Positions 41,169 to 64,000 of a stretch of 64,000 nucleotides of DNA are shown here, in pieces. The notes beneath the pieces are model-generated. The model was not told the DNA's origin, did no database searches, and saw only the letters and a list, made by a program, of their open reading frames with translations. A program made the position numbers and the translations under genes. Within the stretch, counting starts at the first letter, position 1. Each line of letters opens with the position of its first letter. This DNA is from a virus. The stretch spans positions 47,910 through 111,909 of the IMG/VR virus record IMGVR_UViG_3300025626_000006. The stretch is one strand, 5' to 3'.

Positions 41169-41169
<1 letters not shown>
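40525..41169 (-). CDS. J-domain protein
   Basis: LYKKLATKTHPDKTGG...F..VKDAYE. Confidence 0.85.
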
Positions 41170-42773
<1,604 letters not shown>

Positions 42774-47735: not shown

Positions 47736-47933
47736 TTATTTTAATCCAATTATTAATTTTTTATAGTCTACTGATATTAGTCCAAGGACACCAAGTACTA
47801 AACCTAATACACAAAATGCCATTTCATTTAGAACATCAGAGAAGTGGATATATTGTTGGATAGTTCCACTCATAGTTAAGTATCCTAATCCAAATCCTAA
47901 TATTGTCAAGATGATTGATTGATAATTTTTCAT
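47736..47933 (-). CDS. Small membrane protein
   Basis: Two TM helices. Confidence 0.5.
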   Translation of the reverse strand: MKNYQSIILTILGFGLGYLTMSGTIQQYIHFSDVLNEMAFCVLGLVLGVLGLISVDYKKLIIGLK

Positions 47934-54212: not shown

Positions 54213-55900
54213 ATAGATACCTTTTGATTCTGAGTTTTGAAATCTTTCTTTCTCATCACAGTTTTAGCTATTACTTTATTAGCTTGTTTCATAAAAGGTA
54301 TATTGATATTGGTTCTATCATCTACAGCGACTACTTGCTTATATGTATCTAAGAATGATAAGAACTCTTTTTTCTTTTTAGATAACCTTTTAAAGAATCC
54401 TATAAGTTCTGCTTTTGATATCTCTTTATCATTTCTTGGGTCGTTTAACCTATCAAAGAAATGTTTATCTGTAAGTACTACATCTACTGGATTGAGTTTC
54501 TTATCAGCGAATGTATCTATTTGTTTTAAATCACCCATTGGGATTTCTGATAAGGGTTCTCTGATTGTTGGTGATGGGTGATTCTTATCAATACATCTAC
54601 CATCCAATGTTGTTGGATTTTTACATTTATTACCAAATCTATCAAAATAGATTTCTGTAAATATGTTTTGTGTTCCTGCGTTTCCAACATAAGAAACAAA
54701 ATACACTCTTTGTTTACCAACTTTTTTAGAAAGTACTTGTCCTTCTTTACCTGATTTTTCAAGTTCTTTTTGTGCATTATCAGGTTTTAAATAAAAGTTT
54801 CTCTTTTGTTTCATTAGAGATGCTTTTTTACTTTTCTTCTTCTTCTTCGGTTTTTTCTTTTCTGTGATGAATTTCTGTTCTTTAGCGACCTTTAATACTT
54901 TTTTCTTTTGAGAATTTGATAGTTTATGGTAATCAGGTCCAAATTCTTTGTGTGAGATTACATCTAACATATCCATTACAGTTGTACGGTTCGATAGTTT
55001 TTTACTACCTTGTGGATGTGCACTTTCTGGCGAATCTTCTTTTTTCAATCTACTTTTCTCAGCTCTACCTCTGTTCTTAGATTCATCTTCGAATCCAACA
55101 ATCTTCCCACCTTTGTGAGATGCATCTTTACCATCACCATTACCATAAGTACCTTTGTCTCTGTTGTACTTATTTAGTTCTGCTCTATACTTCTTTGCTT
55201 TCTTAGATTTTCCGTATTTTGCGTATTCTTTTTTGTAATCTCGTTTAGTTTCTTCACCAATATTTAATCTTTTGTAATCTTTTGATGTAGTTTGATGTGG
55301 TTGATTATCATGACCACATTTATGACATATGTATAAATCATCACCACCATCTTTTATCATCCAAGTCCAACCACAATTAGAACACTCTATCTTGTCAGCC
55401 ATTATTGTTTCTTTAAGACCAGTGATTTTGTTAGTTTTTTTCCAAGCTTTTTTATCAAATATCAAGTCATCTTTGACCATCATTATCATTAAATCTCTTC
55501 CGAACTTGTTACCATTTTTGATGTGAGTATATTCTTTAGCATTTTTTCTAGCCCACTTGTACCATAATGCTGATAAAGTTAAGAACATCTTACCACCATC
55601 TCCAGAATGTTTGATGAGTTCTTTTTTGAACATCTTTCTATTTTTGTATGCATATTTCTTAAAATCTAAATATACAAACTCATTAGGACTATCCATAGGA
55701 ATAGGTCGGCCTTCTATTATTGATTCTTCTACCGATGGTAATAGTCTAAATTTCATGAATGGTCTACCATTAATTGTGATATCACCTTTTTCATTCTTAT
55801 CAATAGATTTAACGACAATTCTCTTGTTTTTAAATTTACCACCTAAAACTGTATCACCTACCTTAATTGGTATTACTATATTTTCCCAAAGAATTCTCAT
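54209..55900 (-). CDS. Multidomain putative internal head polyprotein
   Basis: KOW-like, Zn-ribbon (CSNCG...CHKCG), HNH-like (RDYKKEY...GDGKDASH...NR) and HFFDRLNDPRN modules, separated by hydrophobic-x-E linkers. Confidence 0.55.
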   Translation of the reverse strand: MRILWENIVIPIKVGDTVLGGKFKNKRIVVKSIDKNEKGDITINGRPFMKFRLLPSVEESIIEGRPIPMDSPNEFVYLDFKKYAYKNRKMFKKELIKHSGDGGKMFLTLSALWYKWARKNAKEYTHIKNGNKFGRDLMIMMVKDDLIFDKKAWKKTNKITGLKETIMADKIECSNCGWTWMIKDGGDDLYICHKCGHDNQPHQTTSKDYKRLNIGEETKRDYKKEYAKYGKSKKAKKYRAELNKYNRDKGTYGNGDGKDASHKGGKIVGFEDESKNRGRAEKSRLKKEDSPESAHPQGSKKLSNRTTVMDMLDVISHKEFGPDYHKLSNSQKKKVLKVAKEQKFITEKKKPKKKKKSKKASLMKQKRNFYLKPDNAQKELEKSGKEGQVLSKKVGKQRVYFVSYVGNAGTQNIFTEIYFDRFGNKCKNPTTLDGRCIDKNHPSPTIREPLSEIPMGDLKQIDTFADKKLNPVDVVLTDKHFFDRLNDPRNDKEISKAELIGFFKRLSKKKKEFLSFLDTYKQVVAVDDRTNINIPFMKQANKVIAKTVMRKKDFKTQNQKVSI

Positions 55901-56544
55901 AACCTACTTGTTTTTTTTAAATATTTAAACATAGAATATCCTAACTTCATACCAAATGAAGAATCACTTGGATAATGAGCTCTAGCTATGTTTCTACTTT
56001 TAGATATATCTCTACCTAAACTCATTAGATTATATTCATGTGATGGATACATATCTGATAATACTTTTCCGATTAATATTCCCTGCGTAGAATGTCCTGA
56101 TGGATACGATGGTGTTTGCATTGAGTCCATCATATGTGTTTTACCAATATCTACATTAATCAAAGGATGTGATGCCAATTGAGAAGGTCTAGGTCTATTG
56201 TAATGATACTTTAACTTCATTATTACAATAGATGAGTCATCTAATAAAGACTCAATTAGAGAGGATGGGAACTCGATTCCAGCTGAGTCACAATATTCTT
56301 TGAATACTTTATCAACGTTATCCATTTCCTTTACGAAGTTATTATCAATTCTTAGTTTTGATAATTCTTCTAACTCCAACTTTACAGCTGAAGATGTATT
56401 ACAATGTGGTGGGTTACTTTGGAATTGATTCCATTCGAATCCAGCCAACATCGATGGTTTAGAGTTAAGTTTTTGTAGATGTTTTGGATTGATATCATCT
56501 GTGTAACCTAACGTTTTCAGATTTAAAATATCAGTTAGTTTCAT
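55897..56544 (-). CDS. PAP2/haloperoxidase-family phosphatase
   Basis: K..YNRPRP, PSYPSGH, SR.IA.AHYPSD. Confidence 0.9.
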   Translation of the reverse strand: MKLTDILNLKTLGYTDDINPKHLQKLNSKPSMLAGFEWNQFQSNPPHCNTSSAVKLELEELSKLRIDNNFVKEMDNVDKVFKEYCDSAGIEFPSSLIESLLDDSSIVIMKLKYHYNRPRPSQLASHPLINVDIGKTHMMDSMQTPSYPSGHSTQGILIGKVLSDMYPSHEYNLMSLGRDISKSRNIARAHYPSDSSFGMKLGYSMFKYLKKTSRL

Positions 56545-56687: not shown

Positions 56688-57101
56688 CTAAAATTGAGAA
56701 GCTTTTTTTAATTCATTTACTGCTTCTTGAAGTTCATCTAAATTAACAGGACATTCTAAATCTAACCCTGCTTTAAATACAGTTTCCTTTATACCATCTT
56801 TAAAAATAATTAAAGTAGGAGCCATTCTTATTCTATATTCTTTTTTAGCTACTGGTGCGTTTGCGATATCGACTCTGTAATAGTGAGTGACACCTTCTAA
56901 CTTATCCCAATCAGTAAATGCGTTTGATTCATTAAACTTTGCCCAAAACTCGATAACTATAATACTTACTTCATCATCACCAAACGCTGACTTTTCATGA
57001 ATTGCGTTATCGAACTTATTATCGTCAATATATTCTTGTCCGTATGAGTTTAAAAATAAACTCATCATTGTTAAAACTAATATCTTTTTCATACATCCCA
57101 A
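56688..57101 (-). CDS. Secreted thioredoxin-fold protein lacking CxxC
   Basis: Signal peptide; VIEFWAKFN, YRVDI, APTLIIFKDG. Confidence 0.7.
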   Translation of the reverse strand: MGCMKKILVLTMMSLFLNSYGQEYIDDNKFDNAIHEKSAFGDDEVSIIVIEFWAKFNESNAFTDWDKLEGVTHYYRVDIANAPVAKKEYRIRMAPTLIIFKDGIKETVFKAGLDLECPVNLDELQEAVNELKKASQF

Positions 57102-57107
57102 ATTTAA

Positions 57108-57389
57108 TTATTTTTTAGACATATCGTACATACGTTCTTCTAGCTTATCGAATTTTTCTAAAAGCATTTCAACATCTTCTTGAGTGTCCATAATAGTTTG
57201 TCGGATGAGTTCATCCTTTAAATCGTACTCTACTCTCTCAATCACAGGTTCAGGAAGTTCCATAGCTCTCTGAATATCTGCTTGTAATGCAAACCACATC
57301 CCTACTAAGGACGCAATTCCAACTGCTATCATACCGATGGTCTTTAAATCTAACGTTACTTTTGTTTCTTCACCAATTTGTTTAGCCAT
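57108..57389 (-). CDS. Single-TM coiled-coil protein
   Basis: TM helix followed by a coiled coil. Confidence 0.55.
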   Translation of the reverse strand: MAKQIGEETKVTLDLKTIGMIAVGIASLVGMWFALQADIQRAMELPEPVIERVEYDLKDELIRQTIMDTQEDVEMLLEKFDKLEERMYDMSKK

Positions 57390-57401: not shown

Positions 57402-58619
57402 CTATTTGAAAGTGTAGTTAATACCAAAAGTTGTTTGGTACAACTTACTATCCCACATTTTAGAATATTCACCCTCTATGAAAATTCCTAAATTTTTTCC
57501 TATTTTTGTTCCTAAGCTAATCCCTGCTGAGTAGTCATCCCATTGTTCTAATTCCGAATCTTGTATTAATCCTCCTCTTCCCCAGTTGTTTCTATTTAAA
57601 TAACTAAATTCTTCTTCACCAGCAATGTATTTGTGAGCTGGAAGAATGTAGTTGGCATAAGCATGAAACCAAAAATCTGATTTGTAGTGGTAGAAATCGA
57701 ATCCGATGATTGGAGCAACTTCCATCCATGGGTCTAATAAATCCCATGCTTCACCATTAAAACGGTTAATTAATCCAGGCATTACTTCTTCTCTAAAATT
57801 TAAATCAGAATGTGCTACTTGATTTCCATCAGCATCTACCCAACACCAATCTTGAGTTACATTACCATTTTCATCTGTTGATGTATAAAATATATCATCA
57901 TACCCATATTCAAATCCTAGGGCATACCATTGATTAGTATAATAAGGTACACCATTGGCATCTGGTTCCATTTCGTTTAACCAAATTTCAAATGGATTAT
58001 ACCCATAAGCTCTTTCATGACCTCTAGCTATAACCCCTGCTGAAACACTAAACTTTTTACCTATTGGTAATCTTCCTCTTACTTCAGCTGAGTTGTATTT
58101 AAGATTGATTTTACCTACTTCTCTTGATTGTATTTTTACAATATGATATTTACCTGTATGTTTTAAAAAGTAGTTAAAGTTTGTAAAATTTTCCCCTCTC
58201 CATCTTTCTTTTTCATAGTGAAATTGATATTCTAAACCTTGTACTGCAGATGTTGGAGCTCCAAACACTAATTGTTCTTCTGTACCATCATAAAAGTTTT
58301 TAGGTTTTCTTTCGTAATCAAATCTAGCTAATTTTCTAATACCAAATCCATATCTATAGTCATAAGGAAAGACAGGTGTATTATCTACTACATCTGGAGT
58401 AGAGTATATACTTCCATCGGGGTTAGTTCTTAAAAAATATGTAGGTTCTGCTGCTTCTACAGAGTTACTTATATCTCCTGCTCCGTAAAGTGTTCCATAC
58501 TTTAAGAAGTCTTGATAGAATTCTTTTAAGAATGAATCTTTCTTTTCTTTTTTAGCTTCTTGTGCTACTGTACTATATGATATGAATATACATAATAGTA
58601 AAATTAATAATTTTTTCAT
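57402..58619 (-). CDS. Putative outer-membrane beta-barrel protein
   Basis: Signal peptide, aromatic-rich amphipathic strands and a C-terminal FGINYTF beta-signal. Confidence 0.65.
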   Translation of the reverse strand: MKKLLILLLCIFISYSTVAQEAKKEKKDSFLKEFYQDFLKYGTLYGAGDISNSVEAAEPTYFLRTNPDGSIYSTPDVVDNTPVFPYDYRYGFGIRKLARFDYERKPKNFYDGTEEQLVFGAPTSAVQGLEYQFHYEKERWRGENFTNFNYFLKHTGKYHIVKIQSREVGKINLKYNSAEVRGRLPIGKKFSVSAGVIARGHERAYGYNPFEIWLNEMEPDANGVPYYTNQWYALGFEYGYDDIFYTSTDENGNVTQDWCWVDADGNQVAHSDLNFREEVMPGLINRFNGEAWDLLDPWMEVAPIIGFDFYHYKSDFWFHAYANYILPAHKYIAGEEEFSYLNRNNWGRGGLIQDSELEQWDDYSAGISLGTKIGKNLGIFIEGEYSKMWDSKLYQTTFGINYTFK

Positions 58620-58678: not shown

Positions 58679-59119
58679 TTACTTGAGAATCTTCTCGATA
58701 GCCTTCTTAACTGCCGATGCGAACGTTGTTTTATCAAATGGTATTTCATCATTCTGTAAATCTATAAATGTAGCTTCTACCGTAGATTTAGCTTTTCCTT
58801 CAACCTCAATTACCTTTCCATCCATATAGATTAGTAAAGTAACTATTGTCTTTTTACTCACTTTAGTCCATGGGCCAAGTTGGATTCCTGTCTGAGGAGC
58901 TTCTATTGATTGTACAATAACCTCAACAGGTTTTCCATCCATACACAAATCATATTTATCTGAGATGATGTCTTCCATCATTTGTTTAATACCAAATACA
59001 ATCCTTCTTTGACTAATCTCTTCCATTTCAATTGTAGTTGTTACTCCCTTAACAGAATAACAATCTTTTTGTGCTAATAATAATGTAGGTAATAGTAAAA
59101 GTATTAATAATTTTTTCAT
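58679..59119 (-). CDS. Secreted protein, possible CsgG-fold partner
   Basis: Signal peptide; ends FDKTTFASAVKKAIE, paralleling the CsgG-like FNQSTIGIATKKALE. Confidence 0.5.
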   Translation of the reverse strand: MKKLLILLLLPTLLLAQKDCYSVKGVTTTIEMEEISQRRIVFGIKQMMEDIISDKYDLCMDGKPVEVIVQSIEAPQTGIQLGPWTKVSKKTIVTLLIYMDGKVIEVEGKAKSTVEATFIDLQNDEIPFDKTTFASAVKKAIEKILK

Positions 59120-59121
59120 AA

Positions 59122-60399
59122 TTAGAACCTAATTTTACCACCAGTTAATACTTGATAGTTCAAAGCGTTTCCACCTGATTGCCATACTGCTGTAAAACTG
59201 ATGTTATATTTAAATGTTTTTGTAATTTGAATATCCCAAGAACTAAATGGTACAATTAGTAGACCTGGGTCCCACCATTGACCTTCGTAGTATTGAGTAA
59301 ATGGAGAATAGACTCCTAATATTAGAGCTGATGTTGTTACTTTGGGAGTAACTCTAAAATTTCTATGAACACCACCAACAGCCGATAGATTTTGTAATTG
59401 ACGTTTTCCTAATTTACCTATTGTAAAGTTAGCACCTATCATACCAGTATATTTCTTTTTACCGAATTTAAATGATTCTAACGCTGTAGTTGTATTTAGG
59501 TGATTTTCCTTCCAATCAGTCATTGTAGTATTAGCACCTACTAAATTAAATGTTCTATTTGGATTAATCCACGATTTGTAAAGAGTTAAACTAAAATCAT
59601 TTGTTACACTTGTATATGTGAATAATGCACCTTTTATTTTGTTTTGTTTTGTATTAGCGTGGGTAATAGAACCTACTACTTTTACTTGACGACCATTTGA
59701 ATTATCTCTATTATCAATAACTATAATATCACCCGATGCTATTAAAGACCCTGAGTTTTTATTAGCTTCTGCACTTCCATCACCACCATCAACTGCGTTT
59801 GAAATAGAGTTAGCCAATGACATAGCCACCGTACCTTCTTTTGATTCTTCTTTTGTACTCCCATCACCTTCTGATGTACCACTTCCACTTGTACCACTTC
59901 CACTTGTACCACCTTCTGATGTACCACTTCCACTTGTACCACTTCCACTTGTACTACCTTCACCACCATCTCCATCATCTTCACCTGCTGAATTATCTAT
60001 TGCTTCTGCAACTGGAACTGAGGATGCTGAAACTGCTTGGGGTATCATGTCTCCACCTAATATACCCATAATATTTGTAATAACTCCAATAGTATTTTGA
60101 ACTGCTACTGAACTTGTAGTGTTCATAATAACTTGAGTTACAGATTCACATGGACTAGCAGAATTAGATTGAGTAACTAAATTCATCCATGAATCAAATG
60201 CACCATTTGTGAAATCATCTTGTGTAAACGTTTGAACATTACCAAAGTAATTTAAGGCAATAGAATTACCACTACCCATTTGAATAGTTTGTTGAGTTAG
60301 AGTACAAGGGTCTGTAAACGTATAAGACCATTGACCAAAACTAATCAATGGTGTTAAGAATAACAGTAATGTAATTATTTTACTCTTTAAATATTCCAC
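59122..60399 (-). CDS. Putative outer-membrane beta-barrel protein with Gly/Ser linker
   Basis: Signal peptide, a small disulfide-bearing N-domain, GSGTS repeats, and a strand-rich C-terminus ending GGKIRF. Confidence 0.6.
   Translation of the reverse strand: MEYLKSKIITLLLFLTPLISFGQWSYTFTDPCTLTQQTIQMGSGNSIALNYFGNVQTFTQDDFTNGAFDSWMNLVTQSNSASPCESVTQVIMNTTSSVAVQNTIGVITNIMGILGGDMIPQAVSASSVPVAEAIDNSAGEDDGDGGEGSTSGSGTSGSGTSEGGTSGSGTSGSGTSEGDGSTKEESKEGTVAMSLANSISNAVDGGDGSAEANKNSGSLIASGDIIVIDNRDNSNGRQVKVVGSITHANTKQNKIKGALFTYTSVTNDFSLTLYKSWINPNRTFNLVGANTTMTDWKENHLNTTTALESFKFGKKKYTGMIGANFTIGKLGKRQLQNLSAVGGVHRNFRVTPKVTTSALILGVYSPFTQYYEGQWWDPGLLIVPFSSWDIQITKTFKYNISFTAVWQSGGNALNYQVLTGGKIRF
59866..59962. 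repeat. 15-bp tandem repeat with 45-bp period encoding GSGTS/EGGTS
   Basis: Repeated cttgtaccacttcca units within the 59122..60399 gene. Confidence 0.85.
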
Positions 60400-61084
60400 G
60401 TTTTATCATCCTTTTTACGATACGAGCCGTTCCGGATTCTAAAGCTTTTTTAGTTGCAATTCCAATTGTTGATTGATTGAACTTAACTTCGTTGTCATCA
60501 CCAATTTGAGTTCTTTTAATTGTAACGGCTTCACCACTTCCACTTCCTGTAAAAATAGTTCCAGTTTCAGCATTAACAAATCGTACTTGCATACCAATAA
60601 TAGTTTTAAGTACAGTCTTTACTCCATCAATTGTAACTTCTTCTTCTTCTGATACTGAATAATCGTATATTTCTACATATACAAAATACTCAGCCAATAC
60701 AACATTACCCACAACTTTAATATCATTTGACGATATACCTTTTGCAGCTGCTTTATGTTGTTTAACCATTCTTTGTTTAATATCTTCTTTGTCTTCTGTA
60801 AATAAAAATCTATCAGTCCATTCTAAGTAAGATAATGTAATATTACTAACACCCAAACCTACTCTATTCTCTCTTAGTTCAGGATAGAATTCGTATAGTT
60901 CTGGTGTAAACCCAATATTCAAAACTTGAATAGGTAATTGGTAATCTAACATATAATCAGATACCTCATCAATGTCTGCTTTTTGTTCAAAACTAGCTTT
61001 ATAGTCTTCAGTCTCCGTTTTACCTATTTGACCATAGACTGTAAACGTAGTTAACAAAAAGATTAGTGTATATAATCTTACCAT
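60380..61084 (-). CDS. CsgG/HfaB-family protein
   Basis: Signal peptide; LGVSNI...L..TDRF...E; A.YFV...IYDY; IGMQVRFVNAETG.I..GSG.G. Confidence 0.75.
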   Translation of the reverse strand: MVRLYTLIFLLTTFTVYGQIGKTETEDYKASFEQKADIDEVSDYMLDYQLPIQVLNIGFTPELYEFYPELRENRVGLGVSNITLSYLEWTDRFLFTEDKEDIKQRMVKQHKAAAKGISSNDIKVVGNVVLAEYFVYVEIYDYSVSEEEEVTIDGVKTVLKTIIGMQVRFVNAETGTIFTGSGSGEAVTIKRTQIGDDNEVKFNQSTIGIATKKALESGTARIVKRMIKRGIFKE

Positions 61085-61329
61085 GTTATTTCTTCTTCTT
61101 TTGGTTTAGCAGGTGGTATCACTATTGTTTTAGATATTACAATAGTATCCTTAGATTCGGCTGGTGGATTAATTCTTTGTTCCATTACAGGTTGTACAAC
61201 CTCTTCTTTAGGTTCAAATATTGATTGCATATTAGCAATTAGTAATCCAAACGCTGCCGTTATGACCAACCCTACACCTGTTACTACTTGGTTTTTAATT
61301 TCCGAAAAAAATCCTTTGTTCTCACTCAT
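61078..61329 (-). CDS. Small membrane-anchored protein
   Basis: One TM helix, then a Pro-rich stalk ending EEEITW. Confidence 0.55.
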   Translation of the reverse strand: MSENKGFFSEIKNQVVTGVGLVITAAFGLLIANMQSIFEPKEEVVQPVMEQRINPPAESKDTIVISKTIVIPPAKPKEEEITW

Positions 61330-62063
61330 GTCTTTATTATCTTAAATGTTTTTACAAATTTACCATTACTTACTTGTAGCAAATAAACTCCAGCTGATAA
61401 CGTTGATAAATCAGTTTGAAATGAAGCGTAACCACTAAAAAGTTTTCGTGTAAATCTTTTATATTGTACACCACTAAAATTTATTACTCTAATATCATAA
61501 TAATCATTATCGGGCACAGTTAACTCAAATGTTAATTCACCTCTTGTTGGAACTGGATAAACTACACCATAAATTCCATCTGGCAATTCCGTAGGAAATG
61601 CAGACATTCTTTTATTAACGTATCCATCTGTATTTTCAACTTCAATATCCCATCCCAATTCAGTTCCAGCCGTTTTTCTACCAATTGTAATCGGAATAGT
61701 ATCCCAATTTTGATTAGTAACTCTAAATCTTACTGTAAATAATTCGGTTGTATTAGTTATAGTAAAATTACCAAATGATGCATCGTAACCACCCCATCTA
61801 ACAGTTTCACCTTCCCAGTCCATAGTATACGTTAACCACTCTTGGGCTTTAGGTGTCACACTAATCGATACGAACTCTAAATAATCTGAATCATAGTTCA
61901 GTGCGAATTCTAAACTACCAACATTTTCACCCTGAGTTTCTATTTCTACGGGTAAGTTAATAAACTCACTAGCAGGCACATCAATCTCAGGTACGTTAAA
62001 TACTACCTGAGACTGAGCGCTTGTTGTGAATATTAATATTAATGTTAGTAGACATAATCTCAT
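61326..62063 (-). CDS. Cohesin-like domain plus T9SS (Por) C-terminal sorting domain
   Basis: Signal peptide; INLPV...VGSLEFALNYD..LEF...ELFTVRF; C-terminal VYPVP...DLSTLSAGVYLLQV...KTFKIIK. Confidence 0.8.
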   Translation of the reverse strand: MRLCLLTLILIFTTSAQSQVVFNVPEIDVPASEFINLPVEIETQGENVGSLEFALNYDSDYLEFVSISVTPKAQEWLTYTMDWEGETVRWGGYDASFGNFTITNTTELFTVRFRVTNQNWDTIPITIGRKTAGTELGWDIEVENTDGYVNKRMSAFPTELPDGIYGVVYPVPTRGELTFELTVPDNDYYDIRVINFSGVQYKRFTRKLFSGYASFQTDLSTLSAGVYLLQVSNGKFVKTFKIIKT

Positions 62064-62064
62064 T

Positions 62065-63180
62065 TTAATTCAAACCTGTACCATTAGCATCACCTAATAC
62101 TAATAGATAGAAGTTACCAGCAGTAGTTCCATTTATTGTTGGTGATAAAAACTCTGATAATCCTGGAATCGAACTTGATTGGTCTGATGATGCCGCGTTA
62201 ATAGTATTGAACTGAGTTTCAGTAAAGAATAATACATCTGGGTTATTAGCGTAATCTGTACCATTAGTTGCTAATCTAGCAAATACTAAATACGAATCCG
62301 ATGCCGTTACACCATTAGCTTGATTTGGATTAGCAGTATAGAATTGTATACCAGAAGCCGATTGTACACCAACCGCTATTTGTGCTATCATATTAGCATC
62401 TGCCGTTGATAACGCTGTACTAGCATCTAACCCACTTGCAATCTTAAGTCTAACTTGCCAATAACCTTGGTCTACATTTTCTGAGAATGTTGCTTTTCCA
62501 TCTGCTCCAGTTGTTATTGTAGTAATATCTACCCAAGTATTACCATCCGAAGATTTCTGTAAGATTACAGGAATTGATTCAGCTGGGTTTGTACCACTAT
62601 TTAAAATAGTAGCTACATAATCAAATGCGGGTTCTACAAAGTTACCACCATTATCTTGTTTACCTAATACACCATCTGTACCATCTGTTTTTACATAATA
62701 AGCAGTTAGGTCTGTTGTAAAGTCTATATCATCAACAGAGGATTGTGTATAGTTACTAAGGAATGGTATGTCAACTGTAAACATATTACCATTAGTCATA
62801 TCAAATGTTGTAGTTGACCCAGTGTATACCCAAACTACTTTTACAATCCCATTTGTTGAATCAACATCATACGACATATAACCATCTGTACCAGATGTGT
62901 TGTTATATGCTAACGTTGGTTCATCAAACACGTCTTTATCGTAGTTGAAAGAAAACTGAATACCTTTGACTGCTGTACCTGATGTGTTACCATAGTAAAT
63001 GTCAAAAGTAGTGTTGTCACTTGAATCAATAGATTCTAATGTGTAAGTGGAATCTAATATAATCCATGGTTTAGTGTTATCTGGCGCAGTAGTTTGGCCA
63101 TAACTTAATGTACTAAATGCTAACAATAGTACCATTAATGTGTTTCGTAATAGTGTAATTTTTTTCATTGGATTTCCCAT
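62065..63180 (-). CDS. Cohesin-like, prealbumin-like and dockerin-like secreted protein
   Basis: Signal peptide; VKGIQFSFNYD; IPVIL...TTGADGK..F; LSTAD...FYTANPNQANGVTASD...LGDANG. Confidence 0.7.
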   Translation of the reverse strand: MGNPMKKITLLRNTLMVLLLAFSTLSYGQTTAPDNTKPWIILDSTYTLESIDSSDNTTFDIYYGNTSGTAVKGIQFSFNYDKDVFDEPTLAYNNTSGTDGYMSYDVDSTNGIVKVVWVYTGSTTTFDMTNGNMFTVDIPFLSNYTQSSVDDIDFTTDLTAYYVKTDGTDGVLGKQDNGGNFVEPAFDYVATILNSGTNPAESIPVILQKSSDGNTWVDITTITTGADGKATFSENVDQGYWQVRLKIASGLDASTALSTADANMIAQIAVGVQSASGIQFYTANPNQANGVTASDSYLVFARLATNGTDYANNPDVLFFTETQFNTINAASSDQSSSIPGLSEFLSPTINGTTAGNFYLLVLGDANGTGLN

Positions 63181-63203
63181 ATGTTTTTTAGTTAATAATA
63201 TTT

Positions 63204-64000
63204 TTAGTTTTTATGTCCAGCTCTTAATAAATAGTATGTTGTTTGATTTCCATTTAACAAATCGAACAAAGACCAATTTCCATAACCATTGAATATTGTC
63301 TTATCGTCCGTATCTACTGAAACTGCATCCCAATAAAAGGGCGTTTGCCAATAGTTTGTACTCCATATTTCTTGTCCACCACCAGGAAAATTAGTAATGT
63401 TACCATGTCGTTTCTGATGCATTAAATAGATGTCTGATACTGAAAATGTACCTGTATTATTGACATCCATTCTCCAATAATCTTTTGAACTAAATGTATC
63501 AATAAATAATCTATCTGTAAACCAGTTAATATCTGAAGTTGTAAGTGTTCCTATTGTTGGAGCGATGTCTATTGTAAAATCGTAATCGTTGTAATTTAAT
63601 GTGGTATTAAATGAATAATATCCGTTTGAATCTGTTGTTGTGGTGGCTTGTGTTGTGTATGAGAAACCAACTTGATTTTTATTCTGTGTCTTTAGGTAAA
63701 CAGTTTGTCCTGCAATACCTTGTTCTTCTGCACCTTTAATATAACCATCTGCTGTAATTGGTTCTACATTAGGGTCAGTAGCAGACCACTCTGCAAATGG
63801 ATGATTAGGACTAAGTTGGTTGTATGTATTACCATTTGGTAAGATATATTGAAAATTTGCTGCACCTATACCACCATAGTTTTGGATTCTATATTCAAAC
63901 TCATACCATTGAGTTTTATCTAGTGTTGCTGTACCATACGCCCAAGTATTCCAACCATAATATTTTGTAACTATATCATTAGTCTTACCAATACCTTTAA
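63204..64000 (-). CDS. PA14-like, prealbumin-like and dockerin-like protein, 5' end beyond window
   Basis: Frame is open from the window edge: LDKTQWYEFEYRIQNYGG, GYIKGAEEQGIAGQTVYL...TTDSNGYYSF, LTTSD...YWRMDVNNTGTFSVSD. Confidence 0.7.
   Translation of the reverse strand, partial: KGIGKTNDIVTKYYGWNTWAYGTATLDKTQWYEFEYRIQNYGGIGAANFQYILPNGNTYNQLSPNHPFAEWSATDPNVEPITADGYIKGAEEQGIAGQTVYLKTQNKNQVGFSYTTQATTTTDSNGYYSFNTTLNYNDYDFTIDIAPTIGTLTTSDINWFTDRLFIDTFSSKDYWRMDVNNTGTFSVSDIYLMHQKRHGNITNFPGGGQEIWSTNYWQTPFYWDAVSVDTDDKTIFNGYGNWSLFDLLNGNQTTYYLLRAGHKN

Follow-up and report, generated by a model that had tools for sequence, protein, structure and literature searches.

A cohesin, dockerin-like and type IX sorting-domain gene block of large Flavobacteria phages: a candidate surface-display assembly

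The seven genes, their export signals and their cohesins

Cohesin-dockerin assembly is a way in which bacteria and archaea build enzyme complexes on their surfaces. A block of seven genes encoding cohesins, dockerin-like tails and a type IX secretion system (T9SS) sorting domain lies at the end of a viral contig, the 111.9-kb IMG/VR record IMGVR_UViG_3300025626_000006, whose CheckV completeness is 63%. The window, that is, the whole stretch of DNA analysed, comprises the last 64 kb of this record (positions 47,910 to 111,909), and its position 64000 is the contig end. The seven genes, g1 to g7 in the order of transcription, occupy 58679-64000 on the minus strand with spacing from a 20-nt overlap to a 23-nt gap, and a gap of 59 nt separates g7 from the next gene. 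An earlier note, made from the sequence alone, had described a tightly packed operon of exported or membrane-anchored proteins here and had proposed that they form a phage-encoded surface-display complex; gene calls and translations agree with the positions that it gave.

Inspection of the translations revealed N-terminal signal peptides in g2, g3, g5, g6 and g7, all ending in Ala or Gly with Gln directly after the cleavage site. The 5′ end of g1 is cut by the contig end, and its full-length orthologues of about 398 aa carry a signal peptide of the same kind, while g4 has one transmembrane helix (KD19 maximum 2.07 at residues 15-33). The signal peptide or membrane anchor claimed for nearly all genes, including the small anchored protein g4, is therefore borne out, for g1 through its orthologues. 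Substrates of signal peptidase I in Bacteroidetes have been reported to follow a Q-rule (PMC5837995). Because the cleaved signal peptides of the block expose Gln and fit this rule, they are an independent pointer to real export and to a host among the Bacteroidota. GldM, a core protein of the T9SS, is encoded in the Flavobacteriaceae metagenome-assembled genome (MAG) that holds a carrier phage, as well as in 4/4 further genomes of the family. The search for SprA (TIGR04189) gave no match anywhere, controls included, and is hence uninformative.

The candidate anchor is g3 (61326-62063, minus strand, 245 aa), which consists of a signal peptide, a cohesin at residues 22-127 and a T9SS type-A C-terminal sorting domain (CTD) at residues 168-244. 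Its cohesin matches PF00963 at 34.7 bits (cut-off 24.1, E 2.4e-8). The sorting domain is recognized both by TIGR04183 of NCBIfam (45.2 bits vs cut-off 23, E 6.6e-12) and by the Pfam family Por_Secre_tail (PF18962, 33.6 bits vs cut-off 27, E 5e-8), so that both domains named in the earlier note exceed their family cut-offs. The CTD is kept in all orthologues of g3 and in a fusion protein of a distant phage (L052). Judged by these family matches, g3 is a bona fide T9SS type-A cargo bearing a cohesin, and its export by the host T9SS is predicted. Sec signal peptides together with a T9SS CTD do not fit virion assembly in the cytoplasm, and the cassette proteins were accordingly rejected as virion components. 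As all products are predicted to leave the cytoplasm, their site of action would be the infected cell's envelope rather than the virion.

A second cohesin is found in g2 (62065-63180, minus strand, 371 aa), an adaptor-like protein with a signal peptide, a cohesin-fold domain (62626..63075, minus strand, residues 36-185), a prealbumin-like middle and a dockerin-like C-domain (62068..62433, minus strand, 122 aa). Pfam gave no match for g2. Its AlphaFold (AF2) model is confident for residues 36-185, and this part aligns with 3ul4_A at a VIA-align Z of 14.2, with a root-mean-square deviation of 2.8 A over 140/142 residues. The top 17 rows of that comparison are all cohesins, and Foldseek agrees (E 2.6e-6). 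In the model, the N-domain of g2 is a nine-stranded jelly-roll with the cohesin fold, as had been suggested from the sequence. Agreement between the cohesins of g2 and g3 by hhalign is weak (E 2.3e-4, probability 44%). In L052, a single polypeptide of 647 aa combines a g2-like protein with a Pfam cohesin and the CTD, a fusion that adds weight to a functional coupling of g2 and g3.

The putative tip protein g1 (63204-63998, minus strand, 264 aa seen) shows the domain order signal peptide, PA14-like head, prealbumin-like domain and dockerin-like C-domain (63207..63563, minus strand, 119 aa), the last containing two helices like those of dockerins and the calcium-loop motif DVNNTGxFSxSD. The C-terminal domains of g1 and g2, about 115 aa each, are homologous (hhalign probability 82%, E 1.1e-5). 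The second calcium loop of the g1 tail is canonical, following D-x-N-x-[TD]-G-x-F-x-x-x-D (D-V-N-N-[TD]-G-x-F-S-x-x-D), and is followed by a helix. Profiles of both tails searched against PDB sequences retrieved no dockerin and nothing significant. The prealbumin-like domains proposed for g1 and g2 do give a Pfam signal (SdrD_B/CarboxypepD_reg in g1), which lies below cut-off.

Modelling of the cohesin/dockerin pair, a check that the earlier note had called for, favoured its proposal. A complex model of the g2 cohesin, the g1 tail and two calcium ions reached an ipSAE of 0.87 against 0.01 for the best control. That mark is reached by 58/80 solved complexes and by 2/110 mismatched pairs, counts that hold roughly only, as custom alignments were used and the Ca ligand was included. 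At least 83% of the contacts are shared between the runs; they involve cohesin strands 3, 5, 6 and 8 and tail residues 9-20 and 35-55, that is, the two dockerin-like helices. The cohesin face contacted is the canonical one of type I complexes such as 1OHZ. As cohesin-dockerin complexes have already been solved, the model indicates likeness to them, not binding, and it may rest on memory of the solved complexes.

Stalk and tail of g1 are constant among orthologues, whereas the head is exchanged. It is a GEVED domain in two carriers (L016 and L023, 1e-13) and a C-type lectin in L032 and in the cultured Flavobacterium phage vB_FspM_immuto_2-6A (1.2e-16), hereafter phage immuto. For the PA14-like head suggested by the earlier note, the top three PDB matches of the head profile were Epa9, a PA14-domain protein and RsgI3, which is a weak pointer to PA14; their E values are 0.12-0.15, and PA14 (PF07691) gave no Pfam match in the window fragment of g1 or in its full-length orthologues. 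By its domain architecture, g1 appears to be a modular tip whose head is replaced by proven lectin or adhesin-type domains in orthologues.

Genes g4 to g7 and the adjoining genes

The second half of the block begins with g4 (61078-61329, minus strand), an 83-aa single-pass membrane protein with a Pro/Glu/Lys-rich tail that is kept in the block and is also present in L052 and phage immuto. The following gene, g5 (60380-61084, minus strand, 234 aa), encodes a divergent CsgG-fold protein that carries a signal peptide; no other gene of the block is as conserved (89-95% identity among close carriers). It gave no match to Pfam CsgG (PF03783). Its profile reaches relatives that match Pfam CsgG over the same region (17/39, best 1.9e-17), and g5 can therefore be placed in the wider superfamily by transitive homology. 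JGI names g5 relatives CsgG, Pfam LpoB matches occur within the family, and some relatives are fusions to kinases and caspases. In addition, the AF2 model of g5 (pLDDT 78.8) retrieves CsgG (4uv2) first in Foldseek, with E 5.5e-8 and TM 0.49-0.55 over about 230 columns, next PelC (E 1.8e-6), and then FlgT and GNA1162; the best viral structural match is a phage 'CsgG'. None of the curli partners CsgA/B, CsgE and CsgF was found in g1-g8 by Pfam or NCBIfam. Among the more distant g5 relatives, the genomic context was seen for one, L052, and the distant relative P0168 had no match on a viral contig.

The product of g6 (59122-60399, minus strand, 425 aa) comprises a signal peptide, a conserved N-domain with two invariant Cys, a hypervariable low-complexity linker and a C-terminal domain. 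The linker (about 59830-59994, minus strand) is rich in GSGTS here, as the earlier note had seen, and elsewhere it is rich in K, N, S or E. Composition and length change from each orthologue to the next, the shortest linkers having about 10 residues and the longest about 150. The C-terminal 235 residues end in an invariant G-x-x-I-x-F (here GGKIRF). The longest hydrophobic run of g6 is 4 residues, and a signal peptide combined with a C-terminal beta-signal is what is expected of an outer-membrane barrel. The nearest named Atlas (language-model) clusters are all outer-membrane beta-barrel families (0.90-0.93), which is taken as a lead only. It is on the C-terminal signal and this lead that the C-terminal domain of g6 is considered a probable outer-membrane barrel, as proposed earlier.

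The last gene, g7 (58679-59119, minus strand), encodes a small exported protein of 146 aa in which two Cys are invariant. Lipoprotein_16 accounts for 23% of one neighbouring Atlas cluster. Comparison with the g5 family by hhalign gave E 6.5e-4 at a probability of 28%, and g7 is possibly a shortened paralogue of g5. Thus, of the two CsgG-like proteins named in the earlier note, g5 is upheld by fold and transitive homology, and the likeness of g7 is weak. Profiles of g5, g6 and g7 retrieved nothing significant among PDB sequences.

Next to the block lies g8 (57402-58619, minus strand), a protein of 405 aa with a signal peptide and a C-terminal GINYTFK that resembles an outer-membrane protein and had no Pfam, NCBIfam or PHROG match. 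Its middle varies between strains (raised depth in public read data, loose ends at 58047 and 58295), and the gene adjoins g7 in some carriers only (L010, L011, L014 and L015). The next gene, g9 (57108-57389, minus strand, 93 aa), has one N-terminal transmembrane helix and a coiled-coil-like acidic tail, an i-spanin-like architecture; its sole match is phrog_1009, of unknown function, and no lipoprotein partner was seen. These two genes bear on the possibility that the block is an envelope-spanning lysis or release apparatus which opens or remodels the outer membrane as a spanin substitute, with the cohesin and lectin parts as accessories. The inner-membrane stalk of g4, the periplasmic CsgG-fold proteins, one or two barrels (g6, g8) and the i-spanin-like g9 just downstream would fit such a role. 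Nevertheless, none of the ten genes that follow the block downstream in the window matched an endolysin or holin in Pfam, the flanks differ among carriers, and the T9SS-tagged cohesin and the swappable lectins are left unexplained, which makes a lysis function distinctly improbable.

Further genes adjoin the cassette. An exported thioredoxin-like protein without CxxC (56688-57101, minus strand; Pfam E 2e-4, below cut-off) is accompanied by a gene for a PAP2-family phosphatase (55897-56544, minus strand; 3.6e-10, above cut-off), and phage immuto has a thioredoxin-domain gene shortly 3′ of its cassette too. In two distant carriers, an exported Endonuclease_NS, a non-specific DNA/RNA endonuclease with a signal peptide (8.8e-28), is encoded within or directly before the cassette (L052:5836-6420; L053:3145-3723, gp012 of phage immuto); it is not in the block of this window.

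Phage setting, distribution and mobility

The window can be recognized as DNA of a large tailed phage from its baseplate wedge protein, its phage GroEL and its six tRNAs. The GroEL gene (phrog_5725, 6e-163) lies at 41169-42770 and the tRNA cluster (Glu, Ala, Ser, Met, Arg, Leu) at 26818-27973, both on the minus strand. PHROGs gave no useful match for any cassette protein. A scan for sigma-70 promoters and terminators returned fewer sites than shuffled sequences and is unsuited to Bacteroidota.

As the block stands at the very end of the contig and many related contigs likewise end near it, it could be host DNA misassembled onto a phage contig, or the edge of a prophage. The breaks near the block in related contigs are explained by the low-complexity linker of g6 and by strain variation. 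All genes of the window are on the minus strand and the G+C content is even (0.29-0.39), so that the block has the same strand, G+C and gene density as the rest of the contig. Numerous public marine runs, which come from at least six studies, contain the block stretch. The sequence is identical, with zero differences, in an independent DNA run of 2017, whose contigs tile the region and bridge g8-g7-g6. Elsewhere the block stands mid-contig between phage genes, and it is found in the complete genome of a cultured phage. Profiles of g5 and g6 retrieved nothing from 300 other Flavobacteriaceae genomes. A host origin is thus contradicted by synteny, flanks and read data alike, and we regard it as extremely unlikely.

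The seven genes occur in the same order in at least 18 other IMG/VR contigs, with protein identities of 46-95%, so that conservation in phage contigs, which the earlier note had asked to compare with host chromosomes, is indeed seen. Several carriers have the block mid-contig with phage genes on both sides (L010, L016, L021, L023 and G001:C1), for instance genes for thymidylate synthase, a RecA-like ATPase and a DnaB-like helicase, and the genes 3′ of the block differ among carriers. Of these, G001:C1 (L037-L049) is a contig of 248,233 bases from a distantly related phage that was binned in a Flavobacteriaceae MAG. It represents all or much of a jumbo-size phage genome and is likely mis-binned viral DNA that gives a hint of the host. 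Its cassette is 70-89% identical to that of the window phage, whereas core genes, baseplate homologues included, share 25-41%; the gap is best explained if the cassette passed recently from one phage lineage to another. The cassette is accordingly best read, from these comparisons, as a horizontally mobile accessory block of large Flavobacteria phages.

The region had no megablast match among GenBank phages. By tblastn, the whole block was detected in phage immuto (NC_055915), where it forms gp013-gp019 with annotations limited to 'lectin C-type', 'cohesin domain-containing' and hypothetical proteins. The host of this phage is Flavobacterium sp. LMO8 from the Baltic Sea.

Proposed assembly, related systems and significance

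It is proposed that the cassette products leave the cytoplasm and assemble at the outer envelope of the infected cell, a reading to which we would give about an even chance. The g3 protein, with its cohesin and type-A CTD, would be handed to the host T9SS and become the surface anchor. The g2 protein, with a cohesin and a dockerin-like tail, would serve as adaptor, and g1, with an exchangeable glycan-binding head and a dockerin-like tail, would be the functional tip that docks on a cohesin. The outcome would be a cellulosome-style chain displaying a lectin. The earlier note had further suggested that g2, with a cohesin and a docking tail in one protein, might polymerise with itself. In this scheme the inner-membrane stalk g4, the non-lipidated CsgG/PelC-fold proteins g5 and g7 and the barrel g6 with its variable tether may form a separate sub-module of the periplasm and outer membrane, most likely one that exports or holds the parts without a CTD. 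The g1 and g2 proteins might cross the outer membrane either by piggy-backing on g3 or via g4-g7. The display could serve adhesion, receptor masking or something tied to release.

Several observations weigh against this assembly. Neither g1 nor g2 has a T9SS CTD of type A or B in Pfam or NCBIfam, and their passage through the outer membrane is unexplained. The first loop of the g1 tail is degenerate (G-x-L-x-x-x-D plus a helix) and the g2 tail has no canonical calcium loop. Dockerin_1 (PF00404) is detected in 6/9 orthologues, in every case below cut-off (best 17.4 bits vs 22.9, best single E 0.005), and the g1 and g2 of the window gave no Dockerin_1 match at E up to 10 and up to 1. In the docking model, the g1 tail has a pLDDT of 56-61, which is low confidence, and in the AF2 model of full g2 the prealbumin and tail parts fall below pLDDT 50. 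The dockerins of the earlier note thus stand as far as the dockerin-like helices, the shared tail and the docking model go, and fail at the Pfam family cut-off. Regarding the second half, g5 and its close orthologues have no Cys in the signal region and hence no lipobox. The g5 model shows an 18-residue low-confidence loop (115-132) and, in the place of the second membrane hairpin, a loop of 10 residues (193-202) that leaves no room for it, so that a CsgG-type pore is doubtful on this model. A crude strand-amphipathicity test did not separate the g6 C-domain from shuffled sequences (z 0.0) and was uninformative. Finally, the block is contained in RNA libraries, of which two show flat coverage over all 12 kb, possibly from DNA carry-over, and a third contains a relative's cassette only.

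Some of these points would suit a complex that remains periplasmic or at the outer membrane's inner face, in which g1 and g2 bind peptidoglycan or periplasmic glycans. Both carry Sec signals without a T9SS domain, g5 lacks the lipobox and perhaps the membrane hairpins, and the CsgG-fold proteins PelC and LpoB act in the periplasm; a distant g5 homologue in L052 does have a lipobox, LLVTGC. On the other hand, the full type-A CTD of g3, with its conservation in orthologues and in the L052 fusion, would be senseless for a periplasmic end state, and heads of the C-type lectin, GEVED and PA14 kinds typically belong to proteins on the cell surface. We consider a purely periplasmic complex quite unlikely. 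The surface-display reading of the earlier note is therefore retained in part: the T9SS-tagged cohesin, the second cohesin, the docking model and the swapped heads speak for it, and the absence of a CTD from g1 and g2 speaks against it.

The same assembly on the cell surface could have receptor masking as its purpose. The lectin head would bind a surface glycan of the infected cell that is the receptor of the phage itself or of its competitors, which would block superinfection and spare progeny from loss on debris. The lipoprotein Llp of phage T5 masks FhuA. Swapping of heads among close relatives on a constant stalk and tail is expected of parts that track variable host glycans, and the cassette is passed between phages that share a host group without being related. 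Moreover, coinfection avoidance has been discussed for envelope genes of pelagimyophages (PMC7029224). A scaffold with an adaptor nevertheless seems elaborate for this purpose and adhesion fits equally, so that masking is a rather unlikely explanation. A more far-reaching version of the surface-display proposal is likewise somewhat improbable, namely that the cassette is a self-contained, phage-borne machine for protein display, in which the T9SS-tagged cohesin piggy-backs the CTD-less adaptor and lectin, or in which a CsgG/PelC-fold ring and a barrel (g4-g7) constitute a new exporter of proteins across the outer membrane.

The organization of the cassette resembles that of cellulosomal and non-cellulosomal cohesin-dockerin assemblies (Clostridium thermocellum 1OHZ, 3UL4), in which an anchoring cohesin, a cohesin with a docking tail and a head with a docking tail are found as well, and the modelled contact uses the canonical cohesin face. 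The differences are that the cassette is phage-encoded, that its anchor is a T9SS CTD instead of SLH or sortase, and that its cargo is a lectin-type head and not an enzyme. Unlike dockerins, the tail is about 115 aa long and has an extra C-terminal half; of its two calcium loops one is canonical and one degenerate, and the tail as a whole falls below the Dockerin_1 cut-off.

One published report of phage-encoded T9SS cargo was found. Cryophage, a Bacteroidota phage, encodes type-A sorting-domain proteins, one of them with PA14, and these genes vary between variants (Bellas et al., 2020; PMC7468147). Its cargo carries the CTD itself, whereas in the present cassette the cohesin anchor alone has one, and no cohesin, docking tail, CsgG-like protein or barrel was reported for Cryophage. 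Clusters of csgG/csgF 'curli' genes of unknown function have been described in pelagimyophages (Zaragoza-Solas et al., 2020; PMC7029224). They are similar in that a CsgG-family gene, with unknown exported proteins as neighbours, belongs to the variable accessory part of a large marine myophage genome. They differ in being close to proteobacterial type VIII secretion system genes, with CsgF, whereas g5 is too divergent for Pfam CsgG, lacks a lipobox, CsgF, CsgE and curlin, and is accompanied by separate barrel and cohesin genes. The methylophage Melnitz reportedly has a csgG/csgF 'curli' cluster as well. An alternative analogy for g5 is a PelC-like ring under a separate barrel. As in the PelC-PelB exporter (5T0Z, 9H80), a protein of CsgG-like fold without membrane hairpins of its own would be encoded with a separate beta-barrel; PelC, however, is a lipoprotein and exports polysaccharide, and no sequence relation of the cassette to PelB was seen, so that the comparison is one of analogy only.

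A literature search turned up neither a description of this cassette nor a paper on cohesin-dockerin genes in phages, in line with the earlier note, which was not aware of a characterized phage system of this kind; papers mentioning phage immuto concern other topics in the parts available. The parts of the cassette belong to known kinds, and it is their combination, the phage setting and the T9SS anchor that are new.

To judge by the more than 6,400 g5 relatives scored in one search, the cassette is a very frequent element of metagenomes from the sea and from lakes. Because it moves between unrelated Flavobacteria phages, it probably matters for the infection of one of the major groups that degrade algal blooms, and the question is directly testable in the cultured phage-host pair that carries it. 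The cassette could also offer natural, small and orthogonal docking pairs for surface display in Bacteroidota. If the proposed assembly is true, the use of host type IX secretion by a phage for exchangeable lectins would be a new viral way to re-equip the surface of an infected cell, and swapping of the lectin heads could reprogram what that cell sticks to or hides.

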